A stretch of 58,377 nt of DNA, filler included, from Dimargaris cristalligena (lineage: Eukaryota), in the NCBI GenBank assembly GCA_003614675.1. It is 2 parts of 2 records of this genome, joined end to end, with 100 filler letters (N's around TTAATTAATTAA, not from the genome) between each part and the next. Parts side by side here need not be neighbours in the genome. Positions count along the whole stretch, not along the records: positions 29,284 to 58,377 come from ML002491.1; 1 more part is not named here. One strand, 5' to 3'. A model generated the notes under the pieces. The model made no database searches. It was given only the letters and a program-made list of their open reading frames with translations, and was not told the origin of the DNA. Below, in pieces: positions 18,973-58,377 of the stretch; positions within the stretch are counted from its first letter, which is position 1, and each line of letters starts with the position of its first letter. A program made the translations under genes and the position numbers.

Positions 18973-18998
18973 GGCATAGGGAGGAGGGGGGTGGGAGA

Positions 18999-19023
18999 TG
19001 TGTGTGTGTGTGTGTGTGTGTGT
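18999..19023. repeat. (TG)n microsatellite just upstream of the UBR7 start
   Basis: Perfect dinucleotide run read directly. Confidence 0.9.
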
Positions 19024-19444
19024 AAATAGCCGAAATGTAGAGAAGCGCAGGAAGGGAGGGAATATTAACAGAAAAGGGACGAGAAGGACGGAAGAGGGTG
19101 GCGGCTCCAAATTGACAACAATGTCCCGCGGTTGTCGCGTGCGGAGTAAGAATAGTTCTGTGGGGGGGAATTCACCCAGGGTACAAAAACCATAGTTATT
19201 GTAAGCTGGAGAAGTCCGCTCGTAAAGTGGCCCGGAGGGAGCGCGTAGGAGGCAGTTAAGCCCCTCACCCATCGCCTTGGGGAGACGACCCACCATGCTT
19301 CCCAGGCTACTCCAGCCACTTTATCCTCCCATTGCACTCAGTATTCAATCTGGGCATCGTTTCAACTATTGGGCTTTCCTCAATCGACCCCCTTCTGTTC
19401 TTTTTTTAGCGTTTTCTCTATTTTGATTGCAGTTTTTGGTAACC

Positions 19445-29455: not shown

Positions 29456-29671
29456 CACCCCTAATAAACCCTATATATGCTCACTCCTGTTGTACTAACC
29501 AGTAAGTATGCTGCTGCATGTCCCTTACCTATACCTGTGCTTAGCCTTTATTAGCTAGTACCATGCCTGTACCTAACACTTGTAGCCCACTTAGCCAAGC
29601 CTAAGCCCCACCTACCATTAGAAGCCTATCCTCGGGACTCTTAACAGACTAAGAGTGGTTAACCTGGGTGA
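29456..29671 (+). mobile_element. Truncated LTR (3' part) of the same family
   Basis: Aligns to ~3245-3465 (AATAAA..CCCCACCTACCATTAGAAGCCTATCCTC..GACTAAGAGTGGTTAACC); terminal CA missing. Confidence 0.85.
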
Positions 29672-31173
29672 ATTCTACATAGGCAAACTCCTAATAAGTA
29701 TAGTAATAGTAATAATCTTAACTAGTACCTATGTATCAGGACTGGGGGACAATATTTGCAGAGTATTTTGGTAATTATAATCTATTTTTTCAGCAGCCCT
29801 AATCATTGTTTACCATAAGCTCTAAAACCCCCTTATCTACCCAGTATGTAACCTTGGGTAATTATGCACCTACCAGATGGGGACCCTCAGTATTAGCATT
29901 AGAATATCCAGAGTAGGAAGCTGAGCCCATTTCCCAAATTCCTAAGCATAGTACATTAAAGGAAGAGCAACCCAAAACCAATTCACTGTGTTAACTGTAA
30001 GTAGTGGGATATGTTAAACTGCACCTCCCCCAAGTACCAGTTTATTATAAGCAATATTATTTTAGTTGAGATATGTCTGGTAAATATAACCACAGAGAGT
30101 ATATGTTTATCCTTGCAGTTCCTTCTTCTAGTTTATTCAAGTTGGTTAAATTAATTTAATAATATTAGTATAACATATATCAAGAGAATCTGCAATTATA
30201 TGGGAGAAGTTCATCCAAGCTGTATAACAAAAAATCCATTGGATGGGGCCAATACTACTAGTTAAAAATAAATTTCCCATATATTCTCCTGTGCATGTAT
30301 AATGTCAACCTTTATATAGTTGGGCTGAATTTCACCCATATCTAGCCATTCTACCCTAATTAATTATTGTTCCGAGGCCTCCCTTACCTAACATTTGGCT
30401 GGACTGGAAGCCATTGGGTGTTGACTCTATAATTGGGGATTTATGTATGACTGAGATTGCTCAACAGTGGTACATATTGATATCTAGGCTAAAGCTTGCT
30501 CATTGGCATAGTTCTATCAATGGAGGTGAATTTTAAGGAGATCTGAAAGACTGGTGAATAATTCATGAAGACACTGACCATGGGATGTGTTATCCAATGT
30601 CTATCATCTGACCAACCCGGATTACAGGATATTCAGACCTATTAATATTTCACCCTCTCCGAGGTATCTATTCCAAATGCCAACTTTATCAACAGTGATT
30701 GGGAAGGCTTCCCATAGCCCATTGTCAGTTTCCCTGACCAACTGTGCAATAGTATTCCTTCACTTAGCTGTCGGGTTCAATCATTTATTAATTTTGGATT
30801 ACATGAGTAAAACGGTTGGACTGGAGCTGCCCTACACATTTACACTCGTAGTTTGTCCAGAATAAAATATTCAACCCCTCACAAAAAATCCGGTGTATAC
30901 CAAACATAGGGATGCATAAGGTGCAGTATTCCATCCACAATGAATAGCTAGAACAATAGGTAGGTCAGTGATGCAATGAACCAATTCAGTACACTCTAAA
31001 AAGGTATACCTACTTGCCTTTGACACAGCCCAAATGTGATTGAAAGAGTTGGGGATGAGGGCCATGACCAAGGTCAGGTATTTTTGGAAGTTGTATTGAC
31101 TACACACTCCGTCTATTTGCCCCATTCTCTAACCCCACCCCCCCCATACATTACGCTTCTTCTATTGGAGCTA

Positions 31174-41127: not shown

Positions 41128-42374
41128 CTAGTACTTGTAGAAGCCCTCGCCCGATTTGCGGCCTAACTTGCCAGCCTTGACCAGTTCATCCAGCGTCTTG
41201 GAGGGGCTGACCAGCTCTTTGCCCGCGAGACCCTCGCCTTCTTTGAACCAACCGTCGTTGATGAATTTCATGGTGTCCAGACCCACGTAATCAGCGAGCT
41301 GGAAGGGGCCCATGGGGTAACCAGCACCCAGTTTCATGGCCGTATCGACATCCTCGGGAGTGGCTTCGCCGCGCTCAACGAGACGCATGGCTTCCATCAT
41401 GTAGGGGACCAGCAGACGGTTGACGATAAATCTAAATGCGTGGATTTTAAACAGAATAGGCATAACCGTTATAGAAGAGGGTGTTAATATTATCCGACAG
41501 TCGGGACCGAGGCGGTTATTTAGCGGAGATGGGACAGAGTCTCCATTTCATTCGTCCATAGATCAGAGTCGGCTATTTTCAAATAAATAAATAATACGAA
41601 CAGCAAAGATGGTTAGTAGTTATTCCTTCTCGTATCCGAAATAACACTAAGCCACCACTACACTTACCCAGGGGTGTCCTTGCAGCGCACGGGCGATTTC
41701 TTGAGGGCCAAACAGAAGTTGACCAGGTCATCGACCACGACTGCGTCGACCTGAGGGGTCTGGACCACCTCGACCAGTTTCATCTGCGGCACGGGGTTAA
41801 AGAAGTGCAGACCGGCGAAACGGCTGACCCGCTCCGGAGCCGTAGCCTCGGCCAGTCTAGCAATAGGCAGCGAACTGGTATTGGAGGTAAAGATAGTGTG
41901 ACGGGGGGCCACCGCGTCGAGACTGCTGAAGAGATTACGCTTGGTCTGGACGTTTTCCACAATGGCCTCAATGACCAAGTCGGCGGATTCAGCAGGGGCC
42001 ATGGGGTCGGTGGAAGTCTTGACGCGGGTCATGATTTCGTCAATGAACTGCTGCTGCTGGGTTTCGCTGTCGGCAAACTTCTTGCGGGCCACCCGCTGGA
42101 GGGAGGACTGAATGTAGCCCTGACCCTTGTTGAGCATTTCGGGGCTCAAGTCGACCATGGTGACTTGGAAGTTGTTTTGGGCGGCAACTTGGACGATGCC
42201 CGAGCCCATCAGGCCGGAGCCGTAGACAACGACATTCTTAATGGGGGTGGAGGCGGCCGGGGCGGTGGTGTGGAGCAGAGCGGCCGAGGCAGCGGTCTTG
42301 CCCAGCTGGGCGGTCAGGGGCCGGGCCACGGCGGGCTGAAGGTGGCGAAGGATTTGGGACTGACGGGCGTACAT
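41128..42374 (-). CDS. HADH: Short-chain 3-hydroxyacyl-CoA dehydrogenase (HADH/SCHAD-like)
   Basis: Exons 42374-41668 and 41431-41128. Rossmann [53 protein letters not shown]. Confidence 0.95.
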
Positions 42375-43633
42375 GGTGGAGAGGAAGTATAGGTGAGGTA
42401 AAGGGGGAAGAAATAGGCTAGGTATGTACAAAAGCTACAAAACCCGTGAAATAGATAGCAAATATAAAAGGTCAGGGAGAAGAGAAGAGGTAGGGATGGT
42501 AGGGAATTATAGAGCAGAAGTAAAAGTCCCTCTGTTCACTGGTGTGAATACGCGCATATAGAAGAGAGGCCAGGGTGCATGCATGACTAGGAAATATAGT
42601 GTGAGTGAGTGACATCTCCTAGTTCAGGGATTTCACAGGCCACTTTCTGGGATTGGTTTCGTATTTGTCGCACCCCAACCGTCGGCGTATTGCCCTAATC
42701 TCTGGTTGCCACTAACCACACTGGATCAAGCAGTCCAGCTCAGCCGGGCCTGGTTGGCTTGGGGACTCAGTCTAGCCGCGCCAATGATGGATAGGTAGGT
42801 AGAGTAGTAGTACCATTAGATAAAGGGCGCTTTAGCAATTCCTCCTACTTGCTCGAATGTATACCAGTTTCACCTAATGAAACGCGAGGATAATAGCCCC
42901 CCGCTGAAGGTTTCCTCTTTATAAACCGTTTCTCGCATATGACTGCTGCCAAAAGGATAGTAAGTATATCCTTTAACTACAGTGTCATAATAATATATAC
43001 ATTCCCCCATTGTCTCAAGCTATTGGAAGTACACGTGACACCGCTGACCAACTTCCAATGTCTGGCTACCATGGAGAAGGCGGGATAAGAAGAGTGTGAT
43101 AATATCACTTACTTACTTACTACTCAGCCCTACTACATATTATCAGCGATACCAGAGAACTCAGCCCTCCAAAGAGGCTGGCGTGGAAGAACAGCACACT
43201 TCTACCAGATTCATTAATCACACCCTATCCCTTCTGTAATGGATTCCCTGTTCACATGGGAGAAAAGGTCGCTTATTCCGCCAACCTCGGTTTTAAATAT
43301 CCAAGACCTTCCTTTCCCTTTGCACCCAAATCCTAAAGAAGTAATCCCACGACCAACCCATTAAAAACCTCCCATACAGTGACTATTCCCGTCTACCTGG
43401 CTCTGCTGCACCAACCACCACTACTACAATACCAGTTACCTCTATTCACTATCCCCCCGGACCGGTGGCAGCGTACACCGTCGTCGTTCCTTGCCCCCTC
43501 TCCCCAGACTCGCTAGACCGCAGGCCCGAAAACCCCTTTTTCAATTCCATTCGTTAGTCTATTTATATACTCTCCATTTAGCCCTTTCAACATTCCCATT
43601 CCCGTTGCAATACACCGCATTCCCTTTTCGAAC

Positions 43634-46600
43634 ATGGCCGCGGTCCATTGTCGGAGCCCCTTTACCCCACGGGTAAGCCAGCAGGTCCGTCTGCATGTTA
43701 TCCAGGCCACCGACCTGCATTCCCTCTTAGACCAGTCGGCCCACGCGAATGAGCACTCGGTCTTACGTCCGATCGTGGAAGGAGAGGGGAAGCAGGGCCC
43801 GCTAGCCTGCTTCGTGTCCCGCCCCTTCTACGAGGCCCTCCAGCCACAGCAGCAGGATACAGCCCCTGAGGCTTTGGCGGTCCATTTGGACCCCGCCCTA
43901 AAACGCCTCTTGCGACTCGCTCTCGACCCTAGCGAACAGTCCTGCTCACCACCACGACTTTCTGCGACAGCCGCTCTCAGTACTATACTGGCCCTGCCTT
44001 CCATCCTCTACTCAATGTATATCATCGACGATTATCCCGGGCTGGAGCAGGCCCTCGCCAACTTAGTCTCGTCCGTGCCACCAATGGCCCCCAACGAGCA
44101 GCTGCCCGAGTGCTGTCTCGTGCACTCCGAACTGGCCCGGCTGCGGGACTCTCAGTCGACTATACTGGCCAATCTATTCACCGGATCCGTAGAGTGGGTA
44201 CTCCCTCCGATCTTGAACCAGGTCGTTTTAACTACCACTAATGAAGCCGGCTACCGGTACCATATTGACCACCCGGGTCATTTCGTCGACTGCATTAAAC
44301 GGCAAGCCCCGCTATTCCACCGGGGTGATTCACTCATACTACCTTCTGGCCATCCCGCCACTGGCCGAGACGACCAACCCGAAGGGACACAATCCGCCGG
44401 TGATTCCATTTCTTCCGGAACCCAATTCTATGTAGTCGATAGTCAGCCCACCCTGCAAGGTATAGTTGCCCCTGACACTCAAATTATCCTGGCGCGGTAC
44501 GCCCCTACTACGACCAGTACCAGTCCGGATGATGCATGGGCTGCAGAGGTGCCTATGCTCGAGCGGGATTTGGGCTCCATTCAGATTGGGAGCGAGTACC
44601 TTCGTCGGTTGGCCGGAGTCCCCCATGATCCGTTTGTAATAGACAGCGATACGTCGAGTACCGATACCGACGACGATGAAGATACCAGTAATAATAACCA
44701 GGATACCCACAGTCCTACCCCACCTACTCCCGCCGGTTCTAATGGGGACATAGGTATCAATGCCGATGCTCCTACCGCGGGTCTATCACCGAAAACCAAC
44801 CCCCTGACCAGCCCATCCGGGGAAATTGATTGGCCCTCGGTTAATTTGCGTATTCTACCCAATTTAGAAGAATACGCAGCAGTGCCAAATCCGATAGCCA
44901 ATGCCTATTCGGCCCTCGATGATGATTCGGCTGCCACACTCATTCCCTCCTCCGCCCCCTCTATTCATACCGCCACCCTGGCTTACACTGACGGGGTTAG
45001 CGTGGATTCAGCCGTCTTTACCACCTTCTCAACGCTTGGGCGCTTAGGGGTCCAACACGGTGATTGGATTCAACTCCGCTGCTCCACTGAATCGGCCCGG
45101 CCCTGTCGTATTTTTGCCCTACCTCTGCCGAAATTATTGACCAGTGGGCTGGATTCCCCCGGGGCGCCTACGTTATGGACCACGCCCATTTTGGCCTACA
45201 ATTTGGGCCTGGACCTACCCACCATTAGCGAATTGACGTATTCGTCCGAAGGAACAGCGTCGGTATCACCCAACCTGGGCTCCGGGCTAGTCAAAGCTCG
45301 TGGATATCATTCGCACCCGTCGGGCCACCACCATCCCAATTCCTCCTCCCCTTCGGAACCCTCTTCATCCCATGATAATTCATCACCTACGCTTCAAGCC
45401 GCTCGTATTATATTGGCTCGAGTGGCGTCACCCCAGTCAGAAAACAAACAGCTCTACGAAGGTCTCTTGGCCGTCCTGCAACATCGTATCCAAACAGTCG
45501 GCGAGTTGGTATTAACGGAGGGGGATATTTTCCCCGTTTTGGTGGACGAAAATGTGGCAGCGACCAAGGATCGGCTACTTGAAGGCGGTGATCTCGGCTG
45601 GCTTGATTTGGTGGTGGGGGCGGCTAGTCACCCCGCCCGCACTGGCCAGGTTGCCTTCTTTCAAGTGACCAACGTGCTGTCCAAGTCCGAACCTGAATCG
45701 GATGTCAGTCGTCGTCGAAGCTCCCCCCGTTACTGGCGGGTTCACCCTGACTATACCGAAATTGTCCAAACCGGCCTGACCCACGGCTCCGTACCTTATT
45801 GTTGGGGCCCTTACGTTACGGGACTAAGTCAGGCGGGCGTGACCGTACCTCCCGTGGGTAGTACTGCCCACCTATTCCCCACCTTCCGCCAACTACGGGA
45901 TATATTGCTGGCTTTCCAAATGCCCACCACCCAGGCCCTTCACATTCCCTCGACGGTCCTGCTTCACGGACCCCCCGGTGTGGGTAAGCGCGCCACTGTG
46001 GCATGGGCGGCGGACTACCTGGGTTTCCACCGTTACACCGTTACCGCTTCTGAACTCCTGGAAGGCAATCCTTCCGATGTGCAACTACGGGGGGCCCTAG
46101 CTACCCACCTGGAGCAGGCCGCCAAATACACGCCGGGTCTATTCATCATTGAACATTTGGATGCCCTCGTTCATTCACAGGCGGGACTGGAACGTCAGGA
46201 AGAGCCGCCCATCGTACATACCCTCATGGGACTGTTTCAGGAGGTATCCGCCGCCATTCGGCAGCGTAGTACCGTCCCGGGCAATAGCCGGCCCCAGTTG
46301 CACTACCCGTTGATCATGGTGGGCCTCTGTTCCGACGCCTCTAAGCTACCTGCCTCGTTGAGCCAGTGGTTCCAACAGGAATTGGAAATCGGGGCCCCCG
46401 CCGAAAAAACCCGCCAGACTATTTTGCAATCGCTCATGGGTCGACACCTCACCAGCCCGGATGTGACATTACACACGGTGGCCTTGGAAACAGCGTCCTT
46501 CTTGCCCAGTGATTTGGTCCAGTTGACCACGCGGGCCTGTTTGGCGGCCTGGTCGCAGGCCCGTCGGGCGGGCGGAATCGATACCGGCCCTACCACTACT

Positions 46601-47836
46601 ACTGGTACGCAGTCCACATCTACATCCCCAGGGAGCTCGCTTCGACCCCTGCTGGCCGCGGGGGTGGCGGTCGGTGCCGACCACTGGACCCAAGCCCTCG
46701 CCGAAACGCGCACCGAAGTATCTGACAGTCTAGGGGTTCCCAAGATTCCCAACGTGACCTGGGACGACGTGGGCGGTCTCCAATCGGTCAAACAGGACAT
46801 TCTCGACACCGTCCAACTGCCCCTCGAACATCCCGAGCTGTTTGCCCAGGGGGTCAAAAAACGCTCAGGCATTCTCCTCTACGGTCCGCCGGGTACGGGC
46901 AAAACCCTGCTGGCCAAGGCGGTGGCCACCTCCTGCTCCCTGAACTTCTTCTCGGTCAAGGGTCCCGAACTGCTCAACATGTACATTGGCGAATCCGAAG
47001 CTAACGTCCGTAGGGTGTTCCAGAAGGCCCGGGATGCCCGGCCGTGTGTGATTTTCTTCGATGAACTGGACTCGCTGGCCCCCAAACGGGGGCAGCAGGG
47101 CGATTCCGGAGGTGTGATGGATCGGATTGTCAGCCAGCTCTTGGCCGAATTGGACGGCATGTCCGGCGGGGGTAGTGGTGGGGGAGACTTCGATAACGGA
47201 AGTGGGAACGAGGACACTCAGCCTTCCTCGTCCTCGGCCGGTGCCGCCGATATTTTCGTCATTGGGGCCACCAACCGACCCGACCTCCTCGACCCGGCCC
47301 TTCTACGCCCGGGTCGCTTCGACAAGCTGGTGTACCTGGGTATCAGTGAAAACCACACCAGCCAACTCAGTATCCTTGAAGCCCTGACCCGTAAATTCAA
47401 CCTCGCCCCGGATTGGCATTTGGCCGACGTGGCCAATAGGTGTCCGTTTAATTATACGGGGGCGGACTTTTACGCGCTGTGTTCGGATGCGATGCTAAAG
47501 GCTATGATTCGGCAGGTGGACCAAGTGAACGAGTACGTACGGGCCATGAACGAAGATAATAGAGGAGAAGGCGATATAGAAGAGGGTGGTGAAGCGGAGG
47601 CTGGAAACCGGCGGTTGCCCCGAATTCATCCCATCACGGGCAAACCCCTACCCCGGCCCATGACCGCGCAGTACTTTCTGGAGCATTTGGCCAGTGAGGA
47701 TGATACGAATATTTTGGTCCAAGAGGACGATTTCATACGGGCGTTGGATGAGCTGGTGCCCTCAGTGCCCATGGAAGAAATCCGTCGGTACAAGCAGATT
47801 CAAAGTAAATTTAACCAGGGCGTGGCTGAAAATTAG
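43634..47836 (+). CDS. PEX6: Peroxisomal AAA ATPase Pex6
   Basis: 1400-aa ORF. Degenerate D1 (GPPGVGKR). Canonical D2: IPNVTWDDVGGL, GPPGTGKT, SVKGPELLNMYIGESEANVR, FFDELDS, GDSGGVMDRIVSQLLAELDG, ADFYALCSDA. Confidence 0.96.
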   Translation: MAAVHCRSPFTPRVSQQVRLHVIQATDLHSLLDQSAHANEHSVLRPIVEGEGKQGPLACFVSRPFYEALQPQQQDTAPEALAVHLDPALKRLLRLALDPSEQSCSPPRLSATAALSTILALPSILYSMYIIDDYPGLEQALANLVSSVPPMAPNEQLPECCLVHSELARLRDSQSTILANLFTGSVEWVLPPILNQVVLTTTNEAGYRYHIDHPGHFVDCIKRQAPLFHRGDSLILPSGHPATGRDDQPEGTQSAGDSISSGTQFYVVDSQPTLQGIVAPDTQIILARYAPTTTSTSPDDAWAAEVPMLERDLGSIQIGSEYLRRLAGVPHDPFVIDSDTSSTDTDDDEDTSNNNQDTHSPTPPTPAGSNGDIGINADAPTAGLSPKTNPLTSPSGEIDWPSVNLRILPNLEEYAAVPNPIANAYSALDDDSAATLIPSSAPSIHTATLAYTDGVSVDSAVFTTFSTLGRLGVQHGDWIQLRCSTESARPCRIFALPLPKLLTSGLDSPGAPTLWTTPILAYNLGLDLPTISELTYSSEGTASVSPNLGSGLVKARGYHSHPSGHHHPNSSSPSEPSSSHDNSSPTLQAARIILARVASPQSENKQLYEGLLAVLQHRIQTVGELVLTEGDIFPVLVDENVAATKDRLLEGGDLGWLDLVVGAASHPARTGQVAFFQVTNVLSKSEPESDVSRRRSSPRYWRVHPDYTEIVQTGLTHGSVPYCWGPYVTGLSQAGVTVPPVGSTAHLFPTFRQLRDILLAFQMPTTQALHIPSTVLLHGPPGVGKRATVAWAADYLGFHRYTVTASELLEGNPSDVQLRGALATHLEQAAKYTPGLFIIEHLDALVHSQAGLERQEEPPIVHTLMGLFQEVSAAIRQRSTVPGNSRPQLHYPLIMVGLCSDASKLPASLSQWFQQELEIGAPAEKTRQTILQSLMGRHLTSPDVTLHTVALETASFLPSDLVQLTTRACLAAWSQARRAGGIDTGPTTTTGTQSTSTSPGSSLRPLLAAGVAVGADHWTQALAETRTEVSDSLGVPKIPNVTWDDVGGLQSVKQDILDTVQLPLEHPELFAQGVKKRSGILLYGPPGTGKTLLAKAVATSCSLNFFSVKGPELLNMYIGESEANVRRVFQKARDARPCVIFFDELDSLAPKRGQQGDSGGVMDRIVSQLLAELDGMSGGGSGGGDFDNGSGNEDTQPSSSSAGAADIFVIGATNRPDLLDPALLRPGRFDKLVYLGISENHTSQLSILEALTRKFNLAPDWHLADVANRCPFNYTGADFYALCSDAMLKAMIRQVDQVNEYVRAMNEDNRGEGDIEEGGEAEAGNRRLPRIHPITGKPLPRPMTAQYFLEHLASEDDTNILVQEDDFIRALDELVPSVPMEEIRRYKQIQSKFNQGVAEN

Positions 47837-49369
47837 ATGGCCTACCCTGGCTTTTCCCCCTGATGTTTCACTATTACTGTACGCCGCCCAGATAGATGGT
47901 ATACATAGCGCGCCTACATGGGGCAGATGGACTTGTCTCTAGACACATTGTGCATTCCGAGATCTTGTCCGTTTTGTTAATTTGGTTTTTTTAAAAAGAA
48001 ATAAAAGTAATATTTAAATTAAGGTGATTAGTCAACCTAGGCAATCGGGCATCGGATATACAGTCACAATGGCTATAAATTTGCCGAATTCCCCATGAAG
48101 TCGACACCATAATGTATTCATGCTGAATATGGGTGAGGTTCAACCAGGTAATATAACGAAAAACTCATGGATAAGGCAAATACTATTGGTTATATTAAAA
48201 TCACGCAACTATTTAATCATGCCTTTACCGTTTAAAGCCTTACACGGTTACATTAAACTTCTCCCATATGCCCTAATGAGACCCCCCCCCACCCCGAGAA
48301 GCACCATCAATCGCGCATCACCTTTCTCGTTGGTCCCATTCAGGCCATTGTCGGTGTGATTTTTAGACCGCTTCAAGAGCTGGCGGATGGTGTAGAGTAT
48401 GGTTATACATGGTGTATTTCAGACTGGGGTTATTGTCTCCGCACCAGAAATCCCTGGGGGACTGTAGTCCGCATTATCCCTTTCCTGATATTATAGGGTA
48501 TAGGTCGGCAATATTATGAGACCGGTATAATTGCACCTAGTTCTTCGTTGAATTAAGTGATTTTAGCGTCTTACTGGTAGTTGGTATCTCTCCTAGACCA
48601 GCGACGGATTCCCATTATAATAATTGAAGCCCAATAGTTCTATCCGAATGACTTGTGCGCGAGTCGACTGAGAGGTCTCCAATGTTATTATTTTCAGTCA
48701 GCAGGACCATAGTATCTTATGGTCCCTTGACCACTAGCGATTAACCCCTAGCGTGCCTACTATCTCCGGCAGGTTGGCTTACATATATAGACGAATGCAA
48801 TCTCTTTGCCTAATTTTATGAGCACCGACGAAGCCACCCATGTGCATTATTTGGTCGAAAATGGCACAACTAGAGAAAAGAGTCTGCTTGGCCTGACGCT
48901 AGTCTGTCCAAACGGACACAATTTTAGAGGAAAGTTACTCAAGTTGTAACCGTAGTACCAAGGTGGTGAGGTGGGAGGGAAGGCGGGGAACACAGTCGAT
49001 ATACTGGGAACGCCTGGAACCAAGATAGGGGCTCTAGTGGTCAAGTGAGTAGCGAACGGCTGGTGCAACGCTAGGCGTTAGCCCGTGATTACGGGGGCTT
49101 ATTATGGCACACCGCCCTATGTGGCCAGGCCGAAATACAGAGGCCGGTTCAGCGCTGGGGACCTGATTTTTTATCTAGAAGTTTGGGAGGGTTTATAAAA
49201 AAGGGTAGGTTTGGCAATCGGACTGTTTGATATTTATTTATAAGTAAATGTATGGTATTTCACTATCAATGGGCTCTTTTTCCCTAACACAAGTATATAT
49301 CTCTACCCTACTGAAACTTAATTCCATTTAACCAACTGGCCCTCATCGCTTCATCTCCCAGGTACCAAG

Positions 49370-51149
49370 ATGCACCTACTTGTTTTCACATTCCTGAGTC
49401 TTGCGGTAACCCTAAAGTCGACCACCCGAGCCACCAATAGCGCCAATACACCCAAATCGATAGGAAGCACTAGTATAGAATTTCGTCGCTTGCCACCGGA
49501 AATTCACTCAAAGATTTTCTCGTACATTGGCGAGGATAGTGATGAGGCCCTGGATATCTTAGCCCTGGAAGGCCATTTTATGGGCAACTACGCTCGTGGT
49601 ATTTTGGTAACTAAAGTAGGCTATACACGTTGTTGGTAGAGTGGATTTGCGTATGTTAACTAAACTCGGGTAGCTAAACTATTACTTACGTGCACCACGA
49701 AGCTGGCCGTTTGAAACAATGAATCGTCGACTATTAACTGGGGTCCAAAATGTCTATTTGCCGGTATTTCATTATTCTCACATATTTGGCACGGATTCAC
49801 TGAACCTATACCTCCACTGATAGGCATTAGACCAATTCCCCAAAATAATGGTCCAGGCCAAAGACATGTTTTTCAGACGCTACAAATGGCGCAGTATATC
49901 CGTTAGTTGGTTTGCCTTGACTCCTGTTGAATCATGGGATGTCCTCCTCAGTAGTATAGATCACCGTTGGGCCGAGGCTTACCGGCAATGCCTAGACACT
50001 GCATCTCGGCATCAACATCAAGTCAACTACCGGGCACTTTACCGTGGCCAGTACTACGACCAATTTCTTGAGAAAAACCAACATAGCCATTTATTAACCA
50101 ACAACCGCCGGGCCATCTTGTCCATGCGTCTTCTATCAGAAGCCGACCTGAGTATTCACTTCCCACTAGTTTTTTATGCGGATTTTGCAATGGTAGCGGG
50201 TTTATTGGATCTGTTGATTGCGGCCCAAGTGGTCGAGGGTAAGACAAGGATTTTCAATATCGAAGCCCGCCTCGGCTTGGTTGACCACCGCCACCAGATG
50301 CTCCACGATGAGCAGCTGGGTTTAGGCGATTTTGTTCCCGCCGTGGTACACCGAGTACTGACAGGTATTCTATGGCGGTGGTGTCACCGGAAAGAGTGGA
50401 GTCAAGTTGAAGCAGTGTTCCAAGGTTTCATCCACACCACCAATCAGGCCAATGCGGACCATCACATTAACCTACGCAAGCCGGGAGTAATGCATCAGAT
50501 TTGGGACTTCGCCCGACTGGTCATTACTATGGCCGCCATAAAACAGAACCGCCCTACTATCCAGACCGTAACTGATGTTATGGCCCAACTGGACGAAGTT
50601 CTGGAACGAACAGGACCAGATGCCTTTCTAGCTACTCGACCGGCCCTACTTCTTCGCCTCCAATCTGAACACCTGATCGGGGCGGCCCAATTCCTGTCCC
50701 AAGTATGGCTGGATCTGGGTGAACTTCCGGGCACTACTCATAAAGACCACCCGAAATGCCCGCACTTTCTGGATACTAAATACCTTTTTCTAACCGACGA
50801 CGGCGATTTACTTCAGGCTATTCCTTCGGCGGTGATTCGACTTAACCAGGTACTCAAATACGCCGAGTATACGCAGTCCCCGACAAGCCTACACTCTCCC
50901 TCTTTCTCACCTTACTTGTTTCCCGCTTACCATCAAGCCCGCATGGATCGAATTACCGCAGCTACTACTGATGGTGTCATTAGCCCGGCCGGTGATCAAT
51001 CGTCAGAAGACAAGGTACTCCAAAACCTCTGGGACCCTAGTAGCGATCCCTTATTTGCCGATTTCCAGCCTAAATATGACTTAAAATATCGACTTATCCA
51101 AGCAAGGTTTAAATTGGGCCTTTTCTTTTTCTCGCATTTATTTTTTTGA
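49370..51149 (+). CDS. Putative secreted protein with an N-terminal F-box-like motif (candidate effector)
   Basis: Exon 49370-49615 (hydrophobic leader MHLLVFTFLSLAVTL; FRRLPPEIHSKIFSYIG) joins through a phase-0 GT-AG intron (49616-49823) to an open frame 49824-51149, giving ~523 aa. A short extra 3' intron near 51107-51154 is possible. Confidence 0.75.
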
Positions 51150-51397
51150 TCTAGCAAAAAGAAGTAAGAATCAAAGTGCGTAGTGTATCATTAAATACTC
51201 ACATTTTCTGGAAATACTTCAATTGGCTTTATGTATACAGTCAAATGCAGTTTAGAGTGCCTTTATTTTATTGAGGGTATCATAATTATTTTAGTATGAA
51301 TACAATATTCAGTATACTTAAGAGAAAATGAAGACCTTCCTGAAATACTTGGGGTGAGGAGCTCACTTTAAAGTAATCTATATTGAGTTTTACAGTG

Positions 51398-51983
51398 TGT
51401 TACCTAGGCTAACCACTCTTAGTCTGACAAGAGTCATGAGGATAAGCTTCTAACAGTAGGTTGGTCTTAGACTTAGCTAAGCAGGCTTCCAGCATCAGGT
51501 ACAGACACAGTAATCACCAAATCAAGGCTACTAGAATGCAGGTGTAAGCTAGAGATGTGCAGTAAGTATACTTACTAGTTAATACAAGGGGGCTGAGTGT
51601 ATCTATGGTTTATTGGGATAAACCAGGGGGTAAGAAAAAGCTAAGGAATTGAACCAGTCCTAATGGGGCCTAGTTATATATATACAGGGGTGACCCCAGA
51701 GGGAGGTCCCTAGAGAAGGATACTACTAAGACTAGGGTAAGATAAATAGGCTAACCGGACAGCTATGCGTACTTGGAAGACTCTGATGGTAGCTGGAAGA
51801 GTCTTTAGATCAGCACCAGAGTAATTAGTGCAAACCAAGGAGTCCAGAAGGAAAACAATTTTGTAATATAGGATAATCCCATAGTGCCAGGGGTGGCCAT
51901 AGGAAGGTTAATATGGCACTATAAGGTTTAATAGGGATGGATAATTGCTATGTCCAGATTAACTCAGATTAGATAGTTCAATA
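51398..51983 (-). mobile_element. Solo LTR, same family
   Basis: Starts TGTTACCTAGGCTAACCACTCTTAGTC (reverse complement of the family 3' end) and ends ..GATTAGATAGTTCAATA. Flanks CAGTG and CTGAT do not form a TSD. Confidence 0.85.
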
Positions 51984-53299
51984 CTGATGATTAGTAAAAT
52001 ATTATATATAATGTATATTAAAAGATGTTCATGAGCATGTATTTTTGAGGTCACTTTGGCAAGTTTGCCATTGGTAGCCAATGCTGTAGTGGGCTTATAT
52101 GATTTAAAACCCATTTTCTTTATCCCACAAATTCTATAACTCAGAGGCCGGCCAATCCCCCATTAGAGCTACCCTCAATTTCTGCTATCTGTTATATAAT
52201 GATGATTTAGTAAGCCACATATACCAACTGGCCAATGACGTCACCACTAGTGGAAAAATTATCAGGCCGATCCCTCTAGAGAAAACCAGACACTCTACTT
52301 ATCTGCCCCAGTCACACATTAAATGGCCAATGACTCTACAGCTTTTAAAGTTTGCAAAAATAAAACCTCTCATTGTAATACCAAATTAGTTCATCCTATT
52401 GCATCAACTGGGGTCAGGCTGGGGTATTCAAAATGAGTTACACTCTGAAAATCACTTTGTGCTATTTTCAGAATTGGTTAAGGGGGTCAAGTAACTACAC
52501 AGGAACTATAGCAACCCCCCAAACTGGCTATCAAAGCCTATAAAATAGCCATACTTTTTATTGAAACAGCTCACCTTAAAGTAAATAATCTATTTTGACC
52601 TGAAATAGCTATTATACTAGATTTGGTGCATGTGGTCAGTTGGCAACAGGGATATCATTTGCCAATGGTTAAAGCAGCAAATGATTTTTCAAAACTGAAA
52701 TCAATTGGTAATATCATTATATACCTCTGGTTGAAGAACAACATACCTAATTGAAGCTGGTCCTATTGCATTTGGTGATACCTAATTGGGTTTGAGTTTA
52801 TTATAGGAATCATATACCAGCTATCCCAGTTGATACTTGAAGGCCTACTCTACACACCTTCACTACTGGCCCGAGACTCTCTTAAATCACATTGGGGTCT
52901 TCTGAAATCATTAAATTGATATTAATGAATGGGTCAATGAGTGAATAAACAAATAATAAATAGTAAGTATCTAACATGACGTTTTACTGAAGTATATAAT
53001 ACTAGAGAATAGTATGTATTTGGTAATTGGGCAAATAGTAGTAAGCCAGTAGGACCGTAGTCATCTAGGGCTACTAGAATGTCAACCAGCCCTTCCTTTT
53101 CCAGTAAAGTATTAAGTACCCAGGCAAAGAGGAGTGTGAGTAGATGTTCCTTATAATGATTTGAGAGTAAAGAGAAAATCACACTTTGTTCAGGATCAAT
53201 GTTGGTGTTAATATGAATATTTATTTGAGGTGTGTAAATAAAATATATAAAAATAAGTAAGCAATTGGAAAAACTAGAAAGGTGATGGTGCGAGTTGTT

Positions 53300-54531
53300 C
53301 AAGATGGCAATGATTGTTATTTTTCCACGTCCACCAAGGACATTCATTTATAAGGAATCAGCCTAGTTACTGAAACCAAGATGTGATTATGGCGTGTTGT
53401 GGTAAAGCCGGGAGAGCCCGGAAGAATGCAAGGCAGTGATGGCTTGAACTGCCAAGTAATAGTTAAAGGGACGCAGAGAGACACATCAATATTAATATGT
53501 GCACTAGACAAGGGAAGTAAGATGTCACACTCCGGGCATATATGTGGAGGCTCTTTACCCTGGTCCAGGCTGGGGGTAAGGCCAAATATCACTCTATGGA
53601 TGGCCTGTGTAAAAGCACAACACGGCAGTTTTTGTGTGGGCATGGCAGGGTTGGCCCTGGTAGTATCTCCGGACTATCTTTCATTGGAGAGCTGTTTGCC
53701 TACAGAAAGCTCTACCCCATTTGTAGGTCTATCCCTCTGGACTGCTTGGTTGATGTCAGGTACCTTTGTTGGTCCAGTAGTAACAGCAGTAAGAAGGTGG
53801 TGATTTCCAATCACTTGATGGTAATGGTGGTTGGCAGTTGGAGGTGTTGAATGGAAAGGTGGCTTTTGTAGCTGGATGTGGAAAAGTGACAAAGCAGCGG
53901 CCAATGATAGAAATGTGAGTAGTGGTAAAGAATGGTGGGAGGTGTGCTCAGGGAACCTATGGTAATGGTACCTGGTCCAGGAGAGCATAGAACTAGGAAG
54001 GTGAGGCGTAGTTCTTGCACTATTAGGTCAGCTACTTGCGAGACCTTAGAACGTTCTTAATCTAAATAGAGAGGGACATATAACATAAAAAATAGTAGAA
54101 GTCAAGATATAATTGTTAGAATCCAGTATGTAATAGAATGGAACTGCTGCATTTTAGTGATAAACTCATCGGAAGTCTGTGCATGGCTGCAGTAGTAGTG
54201 GGAGAAAGAACCAGAATAACAAGTTTGAAGAAAAAAGCCACCGCTCCAGTTCCCCTTTCATCCACTCTTTCACCAACTGTAGTGTTGGCATTAGTTATTT
54301 CAACTGCCTAATATCAGTGTAATGGTTACTGATGGAGTAGTATAAAAAGGGTACATGTCCGCGCTAGTAGTAAAAATATAAATAATAAAAATATAAAAAA
54401 ATTAAAAAAAAACTTACTTTTTGCAAAACCCAGTAGATGGGCTTTACAATGGGGGCCTTGGGGTCGGCCGTAGGGTAATCCCTACTGGGCCGATCTTGGC
54501 CCCTGGCTATGAATAATTCTTTTAAAGTCAT
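53300..54531 (-). pseudogene. Degraded spliced gene of unknown function (left copy of the inverted duplication)
   Basis: ATG54531 MTLKELFIARGQDRPSRDYPTADPKAPIVKPIYWVLQK, GTAAGT donor at 54417, acceptor at 54364. Downstream frames are broken by stops and shifts. The 3' boundary is uncertain. Confidence 0.4.
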
Positions 54532-55867
54532 ATTAAATAGATCAACGACTTTAAGCTTATATTCAAACACTTTGGGGGAGGGGGATAGGTGTTTTTATAT
54601 TAAGCCAGGGAATACCCCGCCTGGTCCATTGAAAAAGGGGTATTGGCTTGGGAATAGCGATATCCCTTACAAGAAAAAAAAACAGTTTATGAATTGTTGA
54701 AGTGTGCCTATAACAATATCCAGTAAAACGTAATTTTCAAGTTAGTTTTTCTCTGAATTATGTCCTCCCTTCCAATTTCAATTTAATACAATGGTAAAGA
54801 CTGCTGACATGGTAGTTCTACGCATCCCAATGACAGGTCCTAATCTTTTCCATAAAGGTGGCGACTCTTTTGCCAACAATGATACTTCCCACCCATTTGG
54901 AGAAGAATTCATTCCGTGAATAATAACGCCTTTCCCTGTAGTAGACAATAATAATTCAGCTATTCCCACTGATTTTTCCAACTAAATAAAAACAAGGTGC
55001 AGCAGTAGTATCATCTTTTTTCTTTTGCTAACCTGGTCTTTTATTCCCAATTATTGACCTTTCCATCCATGCATCCTATGCTTACATTGTTTAGCTAAAT
55101 GCAATATACTTGTTTCCCACCCCCCCAAGTCTTGCCAATGTCTAAGTATAATGTCAATAATATTATTTCTTCTAGGAATGGCCTAGACAGGCCCAGTTTA
55201 GGAAGATCAGGTGTCACCACAGGTAATAAGAATGTGTCATGAAATCAAAGAGCATTGATTAATCATGGAAATTAGAATATTCCCTAGCATAAATATCTGG
55301 GAATGGTTTATTTTTCTTTTTTGTATAACCAGACAATAGTTTTAAGAGCCCCCCTCCAAATTGACTGGAGATGCCACAATAGATTCTACATTCCCCATTT
55401 AAAAAGTATTTCTAGTTTTTCAAAAATTATAATTAGAATAGTTAAATGTAGGCCCTTGTATGTTGATGCATTGAATAATATAGAAGATATATTGCAAGAT
55501 TATGATATCAATAGGTGGTTTAATTGACCCTGATACACACAACCTGGTCTTAGAAGTACTTAACAGTTACTGTTAAAATAGCTGGCCATACTATTGATAC
55601 CAATGGCTTATATATGTTATTGTAGCAGGCTGGGGTTTTTAGTATGGAATTTTTTAAGATTTCCATTATGAGTTGTATTAAGAGTACATATGGAATATTA
55701 TAAAATCTGGGTGTAGTTAGAGCATCTGATATAACTATTTATACTTAGGATATATGCCTATGTTATTGAATGTTCCCAATAAATGAAAGAGGCTACAGGT
55801 ACTCCAACATTATGGTGGGCCTAAATTACCTAACCACTAGGATATATCAAAATTTGGCTATAATAGC

Positions 55868-56411
55868 TGTCACCCAAGCCAACAACTCTTAGTCCGTCAA
55901 GAGTCTCAGGGATAGGCTTCTAACAGTAGGCAGGCTACTAGTGTTAGGGTGTCTGCACTAACTAAATAAAGCAAGTGTCACTGCATATGTGGGGGACGTG
56001 TACTGATGCACACCTACTTAGTCAGTACAACAGGGTGAGTGTATATAGAGTTTATTGAGGTAAACTAGGGGGTAAGAATAAGCTGCCAAGCAACCGGTCC
56101 CAATGGGGGCCCGGTTATATATACATGGGGGACTACTCTAAGAGGAGGTCCCATAGGGGAAAACTACATAACTAAAGTAACAATAGAAAGGGCCAGGTGG
56201 TCCCTGTATGAGCAAGGGCTTCTATGGGAACTGGAAGACACTAGGATCACCTAAAGAGTGAGTAGTGCAAACTCCAAGGGGTCCAGCCAGTGAGGTGATA
56301 TATATAATATTCAGCACCCAGATAGGACCGGGGTGTTCAGTATGGTGCTATATGGCCTGCTATGATGGTGATCATTAGTGGATGGATTAGGTCAGATTAG
56401 GAGGAGCAACA
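55868..56411 (-). mobile_element. Solo LTR with an intact 5-bp target-site duplication
   Basis: TGTCACCC...GCAACA termini flanked by ATAGC at both 55863-55867 and 56412-56416. Confidence 0.92.
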
Positions 56412-56479
56412 ATAGCTTTTATGTCTTTCAATAATAGGCATAGCTACACTTCTAATAATAGGAATATAAACTAATATAC

Positions 56480-57060
56480 TATTAGACTATCAAATCTGTC
56501 TTAATCTCATTGGCTTAAATGTTAAACCTGATTAGGTCTTCTGGTACTATAGTAACCTTCACATAGTCTCACCTAATACTATGGGATCATCACATCATAT
56601 AACCTTCCCCCTGGTCTGTGTCACTAGTTATTATTACTCACTCCCAATACTAACCCATTAGCCTATTCCAGCTACTATTATAGTCTTTTGGATATTAGCT
56701 ACTAGACCAGCTGGCCCATTTACCTATTCCATAGTCTTGGCAGTATCCTTCCCTTAGGGCCTCTCTCAGAAGTTATCCCTATATATTTAATTAGGCCCCA
56801 TTGGGATTAGTTAGGTTCCTTGGCTTATTCTTACACATTATTTATCTAATAAGCCCTTTATATACTCACTCCCCCATACTGGCTAGTAAGTGTACTTACT
56901 GTATATCCCTTATATATACCTGTACTTGTAGCCTTATTTAGTTAGTTCTATACTTGTGCCTAATTCTAGTAGCCTTCTTAGCCAAGTCTAAACCTAAATT
57001 ACTGTTAGAAGCCTATCCTCAGAACTCTTGATAAATTAAGAGTGGTTAACCTGGGTAACT
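56480..57060 (+). mobile_element. Solo LTR, more degraded
   Basis: TATTAGAC.. start and ..TAAGAGTGGTTAACCTGGGTAAC end; aligns with 2883-3467; no TSD. Confidence 0.8.
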
Positions 57061-58281
57061 GCATATATCCCAACTATATATAGTTATATCAGATGCTCTA
57101 ACTGTATCCAAAATATATAATATTCTATATGTATTCTTTATCCAGCTTATCATGGAAATCTTAAAAAACTCTCTACTAAAAATCCCAGCCAGCTACAATA
57201 ACATATATAGGCTATTGGTATAAGTAGCATGGCCAACTATTTCAATAGTAATTGTTAAGTACTACTAAGACCAGGGTGTGTACATTGGAGTTAATTAAAC
57301 TGCCTATGGATATCATAATATTGCAATATATCTTCTATATTATTCAATTCATCAACGTACAAGGGCCTACATTTAACTATTCCAATTATAATATTTAAAA
57401 TGCTTGAAGCACTTTTTAATGGGGAATGTAGAATTAATTGTGGCATCTCACATCAATCTGGATGGGGGCTCTTAAAAAAATTGTCTGGCTATAAAAATGT
57501 AAAAAATAAACCATTCCCAGATATTTATGCTAGGGAACATTCTAGTTTCCATGATAAAAAAATGTCCTTTGGTTTCATGACACATTCTTATTACCTGTGG
57601 TGGCCCCTAGTCCGCCTATACTGGGCCTATTGGGGCCATTACTAGAAGGAATAATGGTATTGCCATTGTACTTAGACATTGACAAGACTCGGGGGGTGGG
57701 AAACGAGTATACTGTATTTAGCTAAACAATGTAAGCATAGGATACATGAATGGAGGGGTCAATAATTGCGAATAAAAGACCATGTTAGCAAAAGCATGAA
57801 GAGGTTACTACTGTTGTACCCTGTTTTTAATTAGTTGGAAAAATAAATGGGAATAATTCAATTGATATTGACTATTACAAGGAAAGTCATTAGTATTCAT
57901 GGAATTCATGCTTCTCCTAATGGGAGGGGAAGTATCATTATTGGCAAAAGAGTCACTAGCTTTAGGGCAAAGAGTGGGACCTGCCATTAGGATGTAAAGA
58001 ACCACCGTGTCAGCAGTTATTGCCATTGTATTAAATTGAAATTGGAAGGGAGGATACAATTCAAGGAAAAACCAACTAGAAAATCATGTTCTATCGGGCA
58101 TTGTTAAAGGTTAACTTCATCAATTCACCCACTGATGGTTTTTTCTTGCAAGGGAAACCCCTATTCCCCTGCCAATACACCTTTTCCATGGACCAGGCGG
58201 GGTGTCCCCTGGAACAATATAAATACACCTATCCCCCTCCCCCAAAGTGTTTGAATATACTTATAATCATACCTGTTAGAT

Positions 58282-58377
58282 ATGACTTTGAAAGCATTAT
58301 TGATAACCAGGGGCAAGGATCGGCCCAGTAGGGATTACCCTACGGCCGATCCCAAGGCCCCAATTGTGAAACCCATC
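58282..58377 (+). CDS. 5' part of the paralog of the 54531 gene (truncated by the window edge; intactness unknown)
   Basis: MTLKALLITRGKDRPSRDYPTADPKAPIVKPI. Over 32 codons it differs from the left copy at 5 synonymous and 4 nonsynonymous codons. Confidence 0.4.
   Translation, partial: MTLKALLITRGKDRPSRDYPTADPKAPIVKPI

Follow-up and report, generated by a model that had tools for sequence, protein, structure and literature searches.

Agrobacterium VirF is a translocated F-box effector, and the SSGP-71 effectors of the Hessian fly (Mayetiola destructor) carry a signal peptide. Legionella AnkB is likewise an F-box effector that acts in a foreign cell and recruits the host SCF ligase. PMC4617103 describes an F-box that recruits the foreign host's SCF for Ralstonia RipG7, and depicts SSGP-71 as a family with an F-box and LRRs that binds host Skp proteins, some members being F-box-less. 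[quoted passage not shown] LPxE motifs with weak PRANC/F-box likeness also mark other fungal families, which are reported to lack a secretion signal (PMC3914424).

Here, we describe a gene of the haustorial mycoparasite Dimargaris cristalligena, a fungus that lives on other fungi, that invites comparison with all of these. It lies in a window of 58,377 nt, by which we mean the whole stretch of DNA that was analyzed. New here are a family of 18 paralogs, leaders in 14 of them, an F-box-like motif in six, and an all-alpha domain modeled by AlphaFold2 without a clear structural relative. The genes probably constitute a family of exported, effector-like proteins that is specific to the lineage and has an F-box-like module at the N-terminus, and a role in hijacking the host protein-degradation machinery is possible.

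The gene and its surroundings

A sequence-only reading had placed the gene at 49370..51149 and described a hydrophobic leader, an F-box-like motif (L41-P42, E44-I45), a splice from exon 1 to 49824, about 440 residues without a recognized domain, and a solo LTR some 250 bp away at the edge of a repeat island. The public D. cristalligena model RKP37466.1 (510 aa; P0002 in our set) corresponds to this gene and spans 49370..51167 on the plus strand, with exons at 49370-49606, 49824-51106, and 51155-51167. The features of the locus are as follows.

49370..49432, plus strand: hydrophobic leader, candidate signal peptide, residues 1-21, MHLLVFTFLSLAVTL then KSTTRA; possible cleavage after A21
49481..49531, plus strand: F-box-like helix-1 motif, residues 38-54, FRRLPPEIHSKIFSYIG; from Pfam PF12937 and the paralog motif
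49532..49606, plus strand: rest of exon 1, putative F-box helices 2 and 3, residues 55-79
49607..49823, plus strand: intron 1, 217 nt, GTAACT...GATAG, phase 0; junction identical in the public model
49824..51106, plus strand: exon 2, residues 80-507; the conserved family domain, predicted to be all-alpha, occupies roughly residues 95-430 (49869-50876)
51107..51154, plus strand: second intron, spliced out in the public model, 48 nt, GTTTAA...TCTAG; from comparison with RKP37466.1
51155..51167, plus strand: exon 3 of the public model, which finishes a Ser codon, then KKK and a TAA stop
51398..51972, no strand assigned: dispersed LTR-like repeat, 575 nt, begins TGTTACC; outside the gene, bordering a repeat island of low GC

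The ATG at 49370 opens an 89-aa reading frame, and since the same frame is closed by a stop 16 codons before it, M1 is the earliest possible start of exon 1. RKP37466.1 maps to the window with 100% agreement in exon 1 and 99.5% in exon 2, and has the same junction between them ('...NYARGIL|ALDQFPK...'). Intron 1 is bounded by GT at 49607 and AG at 49822-23, and reading through it in frame leads to a stop at 49637-49639. The splice that had been proposed matches the public junction and is in phase and canonical, the predicted join 49606|49824 resting on the gene model. The proposed end at 51149 is the stop (51147-51149) of the frame that continues when intron 2 is retained, giving a product that finishes ...RFKLGLFFFSHLFF, but the public model splices out 51107-51154 and ends at 51167 with ...QASKKK. 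A search with exon 2 matched KAJ1980676.1 (280 of 283 residues identical), with RKP37466.1 in the same cluster.

The repeat at 51398-51972 starts 249 nt beyond 51149. By self-BLASTN the window contains four more full or partial copies, at 2894-3467 (minus strand, 73%), 55868-56249, 56660-57059 (minus strand), and 29460-29671, and homology in the alignment of copies begins at TGT. From the repeat to the end of the window, GC content falls to 36-40% and further repeats occur, and the 10 ORFs of at least 80 aa found at 52108-58328 have no Pfam match at E<=1e-4. The distance and the repeat-island edge were described correctly, and the solo-LTR label is plausible. No Skp1 sequence was found in the window.

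A leader-bearing family with a predicted helical domain

Residues 1-15, MHLLVFTFLSLAVTL, are hydrophobic, and the protein-wide maximum of a 13-aa Kyte-Doolittle window (2.51) starts at residue 3. Heuristically, residues 2-15 form a putative signal-peptide core, a hydrophobic stretch within the usual 7-15 residues that is followed by small residues at -3/-1, with sites fitting the -3/-1 rule after residues 17, 19, 21, and 24. Comparable leaders, each with a 10-aa hydropathy window of at least 1.87 near the N-terminus, are found in 14 of 18 family members (13 of 17 apart from RKP37466.1), which bears out the leader of the sequence-only reading. Most are of the M-(K/R)-hydrophobic-small-residue type, 10 paralogs beginning M-K or M-R, and one of the four leaderless members is an N-terminally partial model. 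RKP37466.1 itself begins M-H, with no K/R ahead of the core and with K16 and R20 behind it. Several motif-less members have S/T/P-rich stretches behind the leader. A second hydrophobic stretch, at residues 194-212 (19-aa hydropathy 1.99), is probably not a membrane span because it contains Asp residues and lies inside a helix that AlphaFold2 folds confidently. The three cysteines and zero N-glycosylation sequons in the 510 aa of RKP37466.1 are neutral to mildly against extracellular life. We infer that the leader-bearing protein is cleaved and secreted, and the 18-protein family is probably exported.

A phmmer search of 1,835,955,588 library representatives (about 1.84 billion) at E<=1e-3 returned 18 proteins, one being the same gene in another strain and 17 being paralogs with 22-31% identity (E 1e-35 to 5.5e-4). 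The resulting family has 18 paralogs, every member is named D. cristalligena, and within these representatives the family is restricted to that species. It is in this sense a lineage-specific, expanded parasite family with an export signal, the leaders in 14 of 18 being heuristic calls. In tblastn, all 17 paralogs match the window solely in exon 2, where the family domain lies, and the phmmer alignments to P0004 (query 39-429) and P0019 (35-210) cross the junction at residues 79/80. The family alignment contains no conserved cysteines and no invariant His or Cys; cytoplasm-acting effectors often lack conserved cysteines. A word-indexed search with exon 2 returned the other strain's copy alone, as did one with the 18-row profile, which scored the top 8000 word-sharing candidates and missed known paralogs too, and is thus uninformative.

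The sequence-only reading saw no domain in the long C-terminal part, and this stands: the 441-aa product of exon 2 has no Pfam match better than E 0.21 and no PDB sequence match, and the ~430 aa after the motif match neither database. Using the 18-row alignment, AlphaFold2 predicts with confidence an all-alpha domain (pTM 0.76; pLDDT mostly 80-97 over residues 80-470). Sequence searches of PDB gave zero matches at E<=10 for the protein and the family profile alike, and Foldseek found none in PDB at E<=1e-3, its best match being the eIF3a PCI domain at E 0.2. In a wide VIA-align search the highest score, Z 9.0, covered 71 residues and fell on the Vtc complex and BAG domains. Helical repeats of the karyopherin and CNOT1 type aligned over a longer stretch (157-194 residues) at only Z 6.3-7.7, and because this is the tool's background for helical models we assign no fold. 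ESM Atlas matches to the whole protein, at 0.80-0.83, are at chance level, and the Atlas's own model has a pLDDT of 0.35.

Two other UniRef labels in the family were set aside. For 'MpaB/rubber oxygenase', given to two paralogs, PF09995 was absent at E<=1 in all 18 members and at E<=10 in P0022 and P0029, and Lcp chains were absent among the rows listed by Foldseek and VIA-align. The label 'alginate lyase', on one paralog, was not reproduced by Pfam.

The F-box-like motif and its possible meanings

Residues 41-53, LPPEIHSKIFSYI, fit the F-box helix-1 signature L-P-x-E-[IL]-x3-[IL]-x-x-x-L, and L41-P42, E44, and I45 are present in FRRLPPEIHSKIFSYIG as had been described. The sequence-only reading had proposed a check with the Pfam F-box models (PF00646/PF12937), and here the result did not support an F-box: with PF12937 (F-box-like), exon 1 reaches 15.9 bits (E 0.011, covering positions 2-17 of the 47 in the profile) and the full-length protein 12.8 bits, below the gathering cut-off of 24.3 bits, and helix 1 alone matches. 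It had also proposed counting paralogs that pair a leader with an F-box. With the pattern [LIFVM][PA]xE[ILV]xxx[ILVM]x[SC]x scored in all 18 members, the LPxEI...S.L motif is present in six, five of them with a leader and one leaderless. As isolated segments, two of the six match PF12937 (E 0.006-0.011) and two match PF00646 (best E 0.031), and PRANC is matched at E 0.013. When the other five motif-bearing paralogs are scanned whole, F-box families are absent from the matches at E<=10, and the sole related match is PRANC in P0019 (E 0.072). A profile of the six segments aligns with the F-box starts of FBXL5 (residues 3-27) and FBXO4 (residues 2-29) in PDB, at E 0.5-0.7, which is below significance and ranks under an unrelated BAG5 chain. 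UniRef applies the name 'F-box domain-containing protein' to four of the 18 members. A word-indexed search with residues 1-95 scored 48 candidates, none of them at E<=1.

Conservation across the module is uneven. E44 and L61, the latter in helix 2, are invariant in the six motif-bearing paralogs, and residues 55-94 show 16.4% identity with a mean BLOSUM62 score of -0.06 per position, a likeness no better than chance. By sequence, helix 1 alone appears conserved and the helix 2/3 region does not, and the module has neither a conserved Trp nor a conserved helix 3. The motif window ranks 107th of 400 windows in conservation. AlphaFold2 places helices at 43-51, 57-67, and 69-95 with pLDDT below 50 in both runs (28-52 over residues 1-70/75), and the N-terminus was no surer when the six were modeled alone (28-41). 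For residues 22-100, the three best ESM Atlas feature matches are fungal F-box clusters (0.88, 0.86, 0.86), all below the 0.9 under which matches are leads only, about a third of shuffled proteins scoring at least 0.8; in the structure search, F-box clusters account for six of the ten rows (TM 0.43-0.57), none of which reaches the tool's threshold. The F-box identity of the module is not established. A PEXEL/RxLR-type reading of 'RRLPPE' was set aside, the spacing being unlike RxLxE and the paralog-conserved positions being those of an F-box.

The six motif-bearing members are dispersed across the family: on the domain tree the motif needs five changes, and well-supported branches force at least three. 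Given this scatter, the F-box module is most simply ancestral, in which case the family would derive from an F-box adaptor that gained an export signal. When a decayed motif was sought in the 12 other paralogs, scores fell within or near the range of 900 shuffled sequences, and no remnant was found in their N-terminal region at the motif's position, so the ancestral module is a matter of parsimony only. First-exon swapping or wrong gene models could yield the same scattered pattern.

The explanation we tentatively prefer, at somewhat short of an even chance, is an expanded, Dimargaris-restricted family of 18 genes with an F-box-derived module and export to the host interface. Each protein would begin with an ER signal peptide, behind which lie a variable segment and an all-alpha domain of ~335 residues with no recognized fold, and in six members the variable segment would be the F-box-derived module (LPxEI...S.L, then a conserved Leu). 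By way of its leader the protein would enter the secretory pathway and leave the hypha, presumably where the haustorium meets the host, and its helical domain would bind a host component. That RKP37466.1 has no basic residue before the leader core, and K16 and R20 after it, is a point against this explanation. Within it, the module may be a relic or have been re-used, which taken by itself is rather unlikely. A bolder version, within the same explanation and unlikely in its own right, would have a Dimargaris F-box adaptor give rise to exported effectors. After host uptake, members that keep the F-box would bind host Skp1 and join host Skp1-Cul1, with the helical domain picking host proteins to be destroyed and presenting them for ubiquitination, and members that lost the F-box would be binders or decoys. 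A fungus that parasitizes fungi would need no mimicry for this, Skp1 being almost identical across the fungi. The co-occurrence of leader and motif in five of 18 paralogs favors this version, as does the invariance of the F-box signature positions E44 and L61 in six paralogs that are only ~25% identical elsewhere. An F-box behind an export signal would be useless to its producer, so its retention suggests use in the host, and there are precedents in Ralstonia RipG/GALA and in Hessian fly SSGP-71, where some members are F-box-less (PMC4617103). Weighing on the other side are the sub-threshold F-box tests, the low-confidence folds, the unconserved helices 2 and 3, and a literature search in which no paper paired Dimargaris with an F-box. 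The SCF-hijacking effector put forward by the sequence-only reading thus emerges in mixed condition, strengthened by the leaders, the species-restricted 18-gene family, the lack of conserved Cys, and the UniRef F-box names, and weakened by F-box tests that stay below threshold and reach helix 1 only.

Other explanations dispense with one or another part of this picture. The protein could be exported and its LPxEI segment be no F-box homolog, being instead an amphipathic helix of the family behind the signal peptide (for example a pro-region, a motif for sorting or uptake, or part of the cap at the helical domain's N-terminus) that resembles an F-box through short-motif coincidence. We consider this somewhat unlikely: the profile matches span only ~16 residues (positions 2-17 of 47), conservation is lacking elsewhere in the module, AlphaFold2 recognizes no fold there, and about a third of shuffled proteins reach 0.8 in ESM Atlas, yet Pfam, the PDB profile search, and ESM Atlas all indicate an F-box and not scattered families, the conserved positions are the signature ones, including L61 in helix 2, and UniRef independently gives four members an F-box name. 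Under the positive-inside rule, the charged side of a hydrophobic core indicates topology, and K16 and R20 behind the core, with none ahead, favor a cytosolic C-terminal side. This would suit an endogenous, non-secreted F-box adaptor, its leader an uncleaved anchor (or gene-calling artifact), its domains in the parasite's own cytosol, and its family a lineage-specific F-box expansion of the kind common in eukaryotes. Few cysteines and no sequons fit as well, but the core, at 13-15 residues, is shorter than expected of a membrane span, most paralogs show the M-K/M-R start and small residues after the core that mark a signal peptide with a luminal C-terminal side, and the absence of the motif from 12 of 18 paralogs would be odd for an F-box adaptor family, making this distinctly unlikely. 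The similar LPxE motifs of other fungal families, reported without a secretion signal (PMC3914424), support the coincidental helix and count against the F-box-module reading. The lineage-specific expansion of fungal F-box families (PMC8146833) supports the endogenous adaptor. A gene-model error, with exon 1 foreign and a product that starts at M88 (49848) and has 433 aa (423 aa spliced) with no leader or motif, is very unlikely. It would accord with a genome paper whose main text, on a term search, has no word beginning 'transcriptom', with the second strain's annotation being a partial 283-aa model only, and with a 5' site of GTAACT, against GTAAGT in a neighboring gene, and no evident TACTAAC-type branch site. 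It is opposed by the P0004 and P0019 alignments across junction 79/80, by the in-phase GT/AG junction, and by the five other motif-bearing models, which keep the same order of parts with hand-counted spacings of 52-62 residues from motif to first conserved Trp, against 60 here.

The effectors of haustorial mycoparasites among early-diverging fungi are essentially unknown so far. The 18 genes offer a concrete candidate set for host-interaction studies because they are species-restricted, expanded, and leader-bearing, and share a confidently predicted new helical fold. If the F-box-like module works, a eukaryotic parasite of a close relative would be re-aiming its own ubiquitin-ligase adaptors at the host without molecular mimicry. 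Such a strategy has been documented so far for bacteria and one insect, and no fungal SCF-hijacking effector family, nor one used by a fungus against a fungus, would precede this one. Should the module prove non-functional, the 18 genes would still record an F-box-like module decaying behind a newly gained export signal.

Comparison with known systems

The sequence-only reading knew of no characterized example of such an effector. For fungi this holds in the literature searched, but among eukaryotes the Hessian fly provides one (SSGP-71; PMC4617103). Like SSGP-71, the Dimargaris family is an expanded family of a eukaryotic parasite with an N-terminal F-box-like part followed by a putative target-binding domain. 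SSGP-71 has a recognizable cyclin-like F-box, LRRs, and demonstrated Skp binding, whereas the family described here has a sub-threshold F-box and an unclassified all-alpha fold and is known from sequence alone; its producer is a fungus attacking fungi. With RipG/GALA, VirF, and AnkB it would share the use of an F-box for host SCF recruitment in a foreign cell. Those bacterial effectors, however, are injected by type III/IV machines and do not pass through a eukaryotic ER, they have LRR or ankyrin target domains, and they bear no sequence relation to the Dimargaris family.

Among canonical F-box proteins, the resemblance lies in a helix 1 (LPxEI-x3-I-x-S-Y-L) that aligns with the F-box starts of FBXL5 and FBXO4, and in the arrangement of SCF adaptors, with an N-terminal module and a larger binding domain behind it. 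The family departs from them in its sub-cut-off score, its lack of a conserved Trp or helix 3, and the export-type leader in front. The fungal LPxE(R) families (2EXR / DUF7730-type; Fusarium and other Ascomycota) also combine an N-terminal L-P-x-E with weak F-box/PRANC likeness but are reported to lack secretion signals (PMC3914424). DUF7730 and 2EXR clusters appear among the near-chance ESM Atlas feature matches, and neither PF20150 nor PF24864 is matched in RKP37466.1 at E<=10. With microsporidian NemLGF1/5 (PMC5423893), the Dimargaris family shares restriction, expansion, divergent paralogs, signal peptides (predicted here), and no known domains. The two are unrelated in sequence, with 18 members here against 18-169 there, and the host exposure demonstrated for the Nematocida families is what we propose for the Dimargaris proteins.

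Gene model and genomic surroundings

Two public protein models correspond to the gene. KAJ1980676.1 (NCBI, D. cristalligena) is identical to exon 2 at 280 of 283 residues, and its 90% cluster also contains RKP37466.1 (here P0002; 510 aa, locus tag BJ085DRAFT_31079), which UniRef names 'F-box domain-containing protein'. Mapped back onto the window, P0002 matches 49370-49606 at 100% and 49824-51113 at 99.5%, and the exon/intron structure was derived by reading the window DNA against it.

Structure of the gene and genes upstream of it
49370-49606, + strand: exon 1 (P0002 against window DNA)
49607-49823, + strand: intron 1, GT..AG, phase 0
49824-51106, + strand: exon 2 (P0002 against window DNA)
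48 nt between exon 2 and exon 3, + strand: intron 2 (public model)
51155-51167, + strand: exon 3 (P0002 against window DNA)
43517-47836: PEX6, upstream of the gene
Also upstream: 3-hydroxyacyl-CoA dehydrogenase and SPC25, like PEX6 ordinary genes

The observation of the sequence-only reading, a gene with a hydrophobic leader, an F-box-like motif and a splice to 49824, is confirmed, and its splice is the same junction as in P0002. Its gene end, 51149, is where translation would stop if intron 2 were kept; the public model removes these 48 nt and ends at 51167. Read unspliced, the C-terminus is a hydrophobic tail, ...RFKLGLFFFSHLFF (window 51107-51167); spliced, it is ...QASKKK, and basic tails also end several paralogs. 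A stop codon lies 16 codons 5' of the ATG, and therefore M1 is the earliest start in exon 1. Intron 1 opens with GTAACT and has no clear TACTAAC box; an intron of the 3-hydroxyacyl-CoA dehydrogenase gene (41547-41667, minus strand) is yeast-like, GTAAGT ... TACTAAC ... ATAG. The three residue differences between strains all fall inside 12 residues (G/W, S/Y, L/P; window 50905-50941, P0002 ~365-376), with the Pro of the other strain restoring a family-conserved 'WP'; either a local polymorphism or an error in sequencing may account for this cluster.

A dispersed repeat of 575 nt, opening with TGTTACC, starts 249 nt past 51149 and has four further copies or fragments in the window. The label 'solo LTR' given to it by the sequence-only reading is reasonable but not demonstrated. 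From this repeat to the window end the DNA is low-GC and rich in repeats, including an inverted pair of 1.3 kb at 84% identity (54436-55757 and 57061-58377), and 10 ORFs of at least 80 aa in 52108-58328 gave no Pfam match at E<=1e-4. Short dispersed repeats of ~80 nt (77-88% identity) occur at 48111-48192, 29057-29154, 30198-30279 and 2458-2522; one is 1.2 kb upstream of the gene, and thus repeats flank it on both sides. Genes for a UBR-box protein (18325-19320, minus strand; zf-UBR, E 1.5e-10) and an E2 ubiquitin-conjugating enzyme fragment (20623-20958, minus strand; UQ_con, E 9.6e-18) lie 28-31 kb away, with no link to the finding.

A family with leaders and a helical domain

Word-indexed homolog searches recovered the other strain's copy only. 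An exhaustive phmmer search over 1.84 billion representatives (E<=1e-3) returned 18 proteins, namely that copy and 17 paralogs at 22-31% identity; by exact look-ups all 17 belong to D. cristalligena, and 15 occur in both sequenced strains. No second family copy was found within the window. In an alignment of the 18-member family, for which the fuller model of each member was chosen, the common region spans ~335 residues (P0002 95-430), with W101, F192 and P193 invariant, E115, D118, R175, W263, W374, G406 and P413 nearly so, and no conserved Cys or His.

The long C-terminal part was indeed without a recognised domain: over ~430 residues the best Pfam match has E 0.21, and a sequence search of the PDB returned nothing at E<=10. 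For the paralogs P0022, P0029 and P0031, current Pfam at E<=10 does not bear out the domains that UniRef assigns ('ER-bound oxygenase mpaB/rubber oxygenase catalytic domain', 'alginate lyase domain'); these names look like marginal automatic labels. AlphaFold2 with the 18-row alignment (pTM 0.76, mean pLDDT 73.8, mostly >80 over residues 80-470) predicts an all-alpha domain with one small hairpin. Foldseek found no match to it at E<=1e-3, and the best VIA-align rows cover 71 residues at Z 9.0; its longer rows (157-194 residues, Z ~6.3-7.7), to helical repeats of the karyopherin and CNOT1 type, score at VIA-align's stated background for helical models. Neither comparison of the predicted model allows a fold to be assigned.

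A strongly hydrophobic 10-residue window lies near the N-terminus of 14 of the 18 members, and one of the four leaderless proteins is an N-terminally partial model. Judged by eye and simple rules, these leaders (MKITITILALATSVFLATGATIASP, MRLSTIVLALAAHLHSAINTCGASP and MRALISVFALVGLHLSQVTSQPP are typical starts) appear to be cleavable signal peptides, and S/T/P-rich stretches follow them in several members. In P0002 no other stretch of 13-15 residues is as hydrophobic as the leader, residues 1-15. This leader is also the family's least typical, with no K/R ahead of the core and K16 and R20 behind it, and quite likely directs the protein into the secretory pathway. We read the gene as encoding an exported, effector-like protein, in which the leader would carry out export and the helical domain would bind a host component, because the family is species-restricted, expanded and divergent, has export leaders, lacks conserved cysteines and belongs to a haustorial parasite, a combination that matches the microsporidian host-exposed pattern.

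Origin and history of the F-box-like module

The F-box-like motif is present as proposed (LPPEIHSKIFSYI, residues 41-53). Its helix-1 signature, LPxEI...S.L, occurs in six of the 18 members, five of them with a leader, and E44 and L61, two F-box signature positions, are invariant among the six. Pfam matches to the six isolated segments are weak (F-box-like in two, F-box in two, PRANC in one; best E 0.006, 0.031 and 0.013), and on exon 1 F-box-like scores 15.9 bits against a bar of 24.3, so that the Pfam check proposed for the motif falls under the cut-off. In the PDB, a six-segment profile pairs with the opening residues of the FBXL5 and FBXO4 F-boxes (E 0.5-0.7), ranked after a BAG5 match that is unrelated. 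In the ESM Atlas, the top three feature matches of residues 22-100 are fungal F-box clusters (scores <0.9) and 6 of 10 structure rows are F-box clusters, and UniRef gives an F-box label to four of the 18. Scanned whole at E<=10, the five other motif-bearing paralogs show no F-box family in Pfam. Every F-box score is sub-threshold, and all rest on the same ~16 residues.

Two AlphaFold2 runs (18 and 6 aligned sequences) draw three helices (~43-51, 57-67, 68-95), in a region of low confidence (residues 1-70/75 at pLDDT 28-52). Among the six, the motif is about as well conserved as the core domain; over residues 55-94, where helices 2 and 3 would be expected, similarity does not exceed chance. From its sequence, the N-terminal segment is probably F-box-derived, by a slim measure; that it is competent to bind Skp1 is, overall, doubtful.

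In a maximum-likelihood tree built from the shared domain, the motif-bearing six do not cluster. The motif label needs five changes, at least three being forced by well-supported branches, and of 500 shuffles of the label 262 do equally well; no remnant is detectable in the other 12 members. The simplest account would be an ancestral gene of leader, F-box and helical domain, followed by repeated loss. In this gene at least, however, the module has an exon to itself, and the scattered motif could also come from exchange of first exons or from wrong first exons in gene models.

The proposal of a secreted, SCF-hijacking F-box effector is partly supported and is made more concrete by the family context; at its centre stands a putative working F-box delivered to the host, and all computational tests of the F-box fall below threshold. 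An exported protein with an F-box-derived module is quite possible; this reading divides into a module that would still recruit Skp1 in the host and, slightly more probable, a relic or re-used module, each unlikely when taken by itself. An exported protein whose motif is no F-box homolog is somewhat unlikely, and here L-P-x-E motifs with remote F-box likeness in ascomycete families without secretion signals, described in PMC3914424, caution against over-reading the motif. An endogenous F-box adaptor, membrane-anchored or mis-modelled, is improbable, and a first exon foreign to the gene highly so.

Comparison with known systems

The finding is a worthwhile candidate, with no demonstrated novelty. 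Bacteria have well-established translocated F-box effectors (RipG/GALA, AnkB). Members of the Hessian fly SSGP-71 family reportedly also carry a signal peptide. As described in PMC4617103, these proteins combine an F-box with LRRs and bind host Skp proteins, some members being without the F-box, and this one insect is an established eukaryotic precedent. The literature searched yielded no characterised fungal translocated F-box effector and no publication combining Dimargaris and F-box; among the matches listed for F-box effectors or secreted F-box proteins, titles and abstracts concerned bacterial effectors, reviews or unrelated topics. A fungal comparative study calls the link of the F-box domain to eukaryotic pathogenicity unclear (PMC8146833). 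In microsporidia, according to PMC5423893, three properties marked proteins that were experimentally host-exposed, and the D. cristalligena family matches those three.
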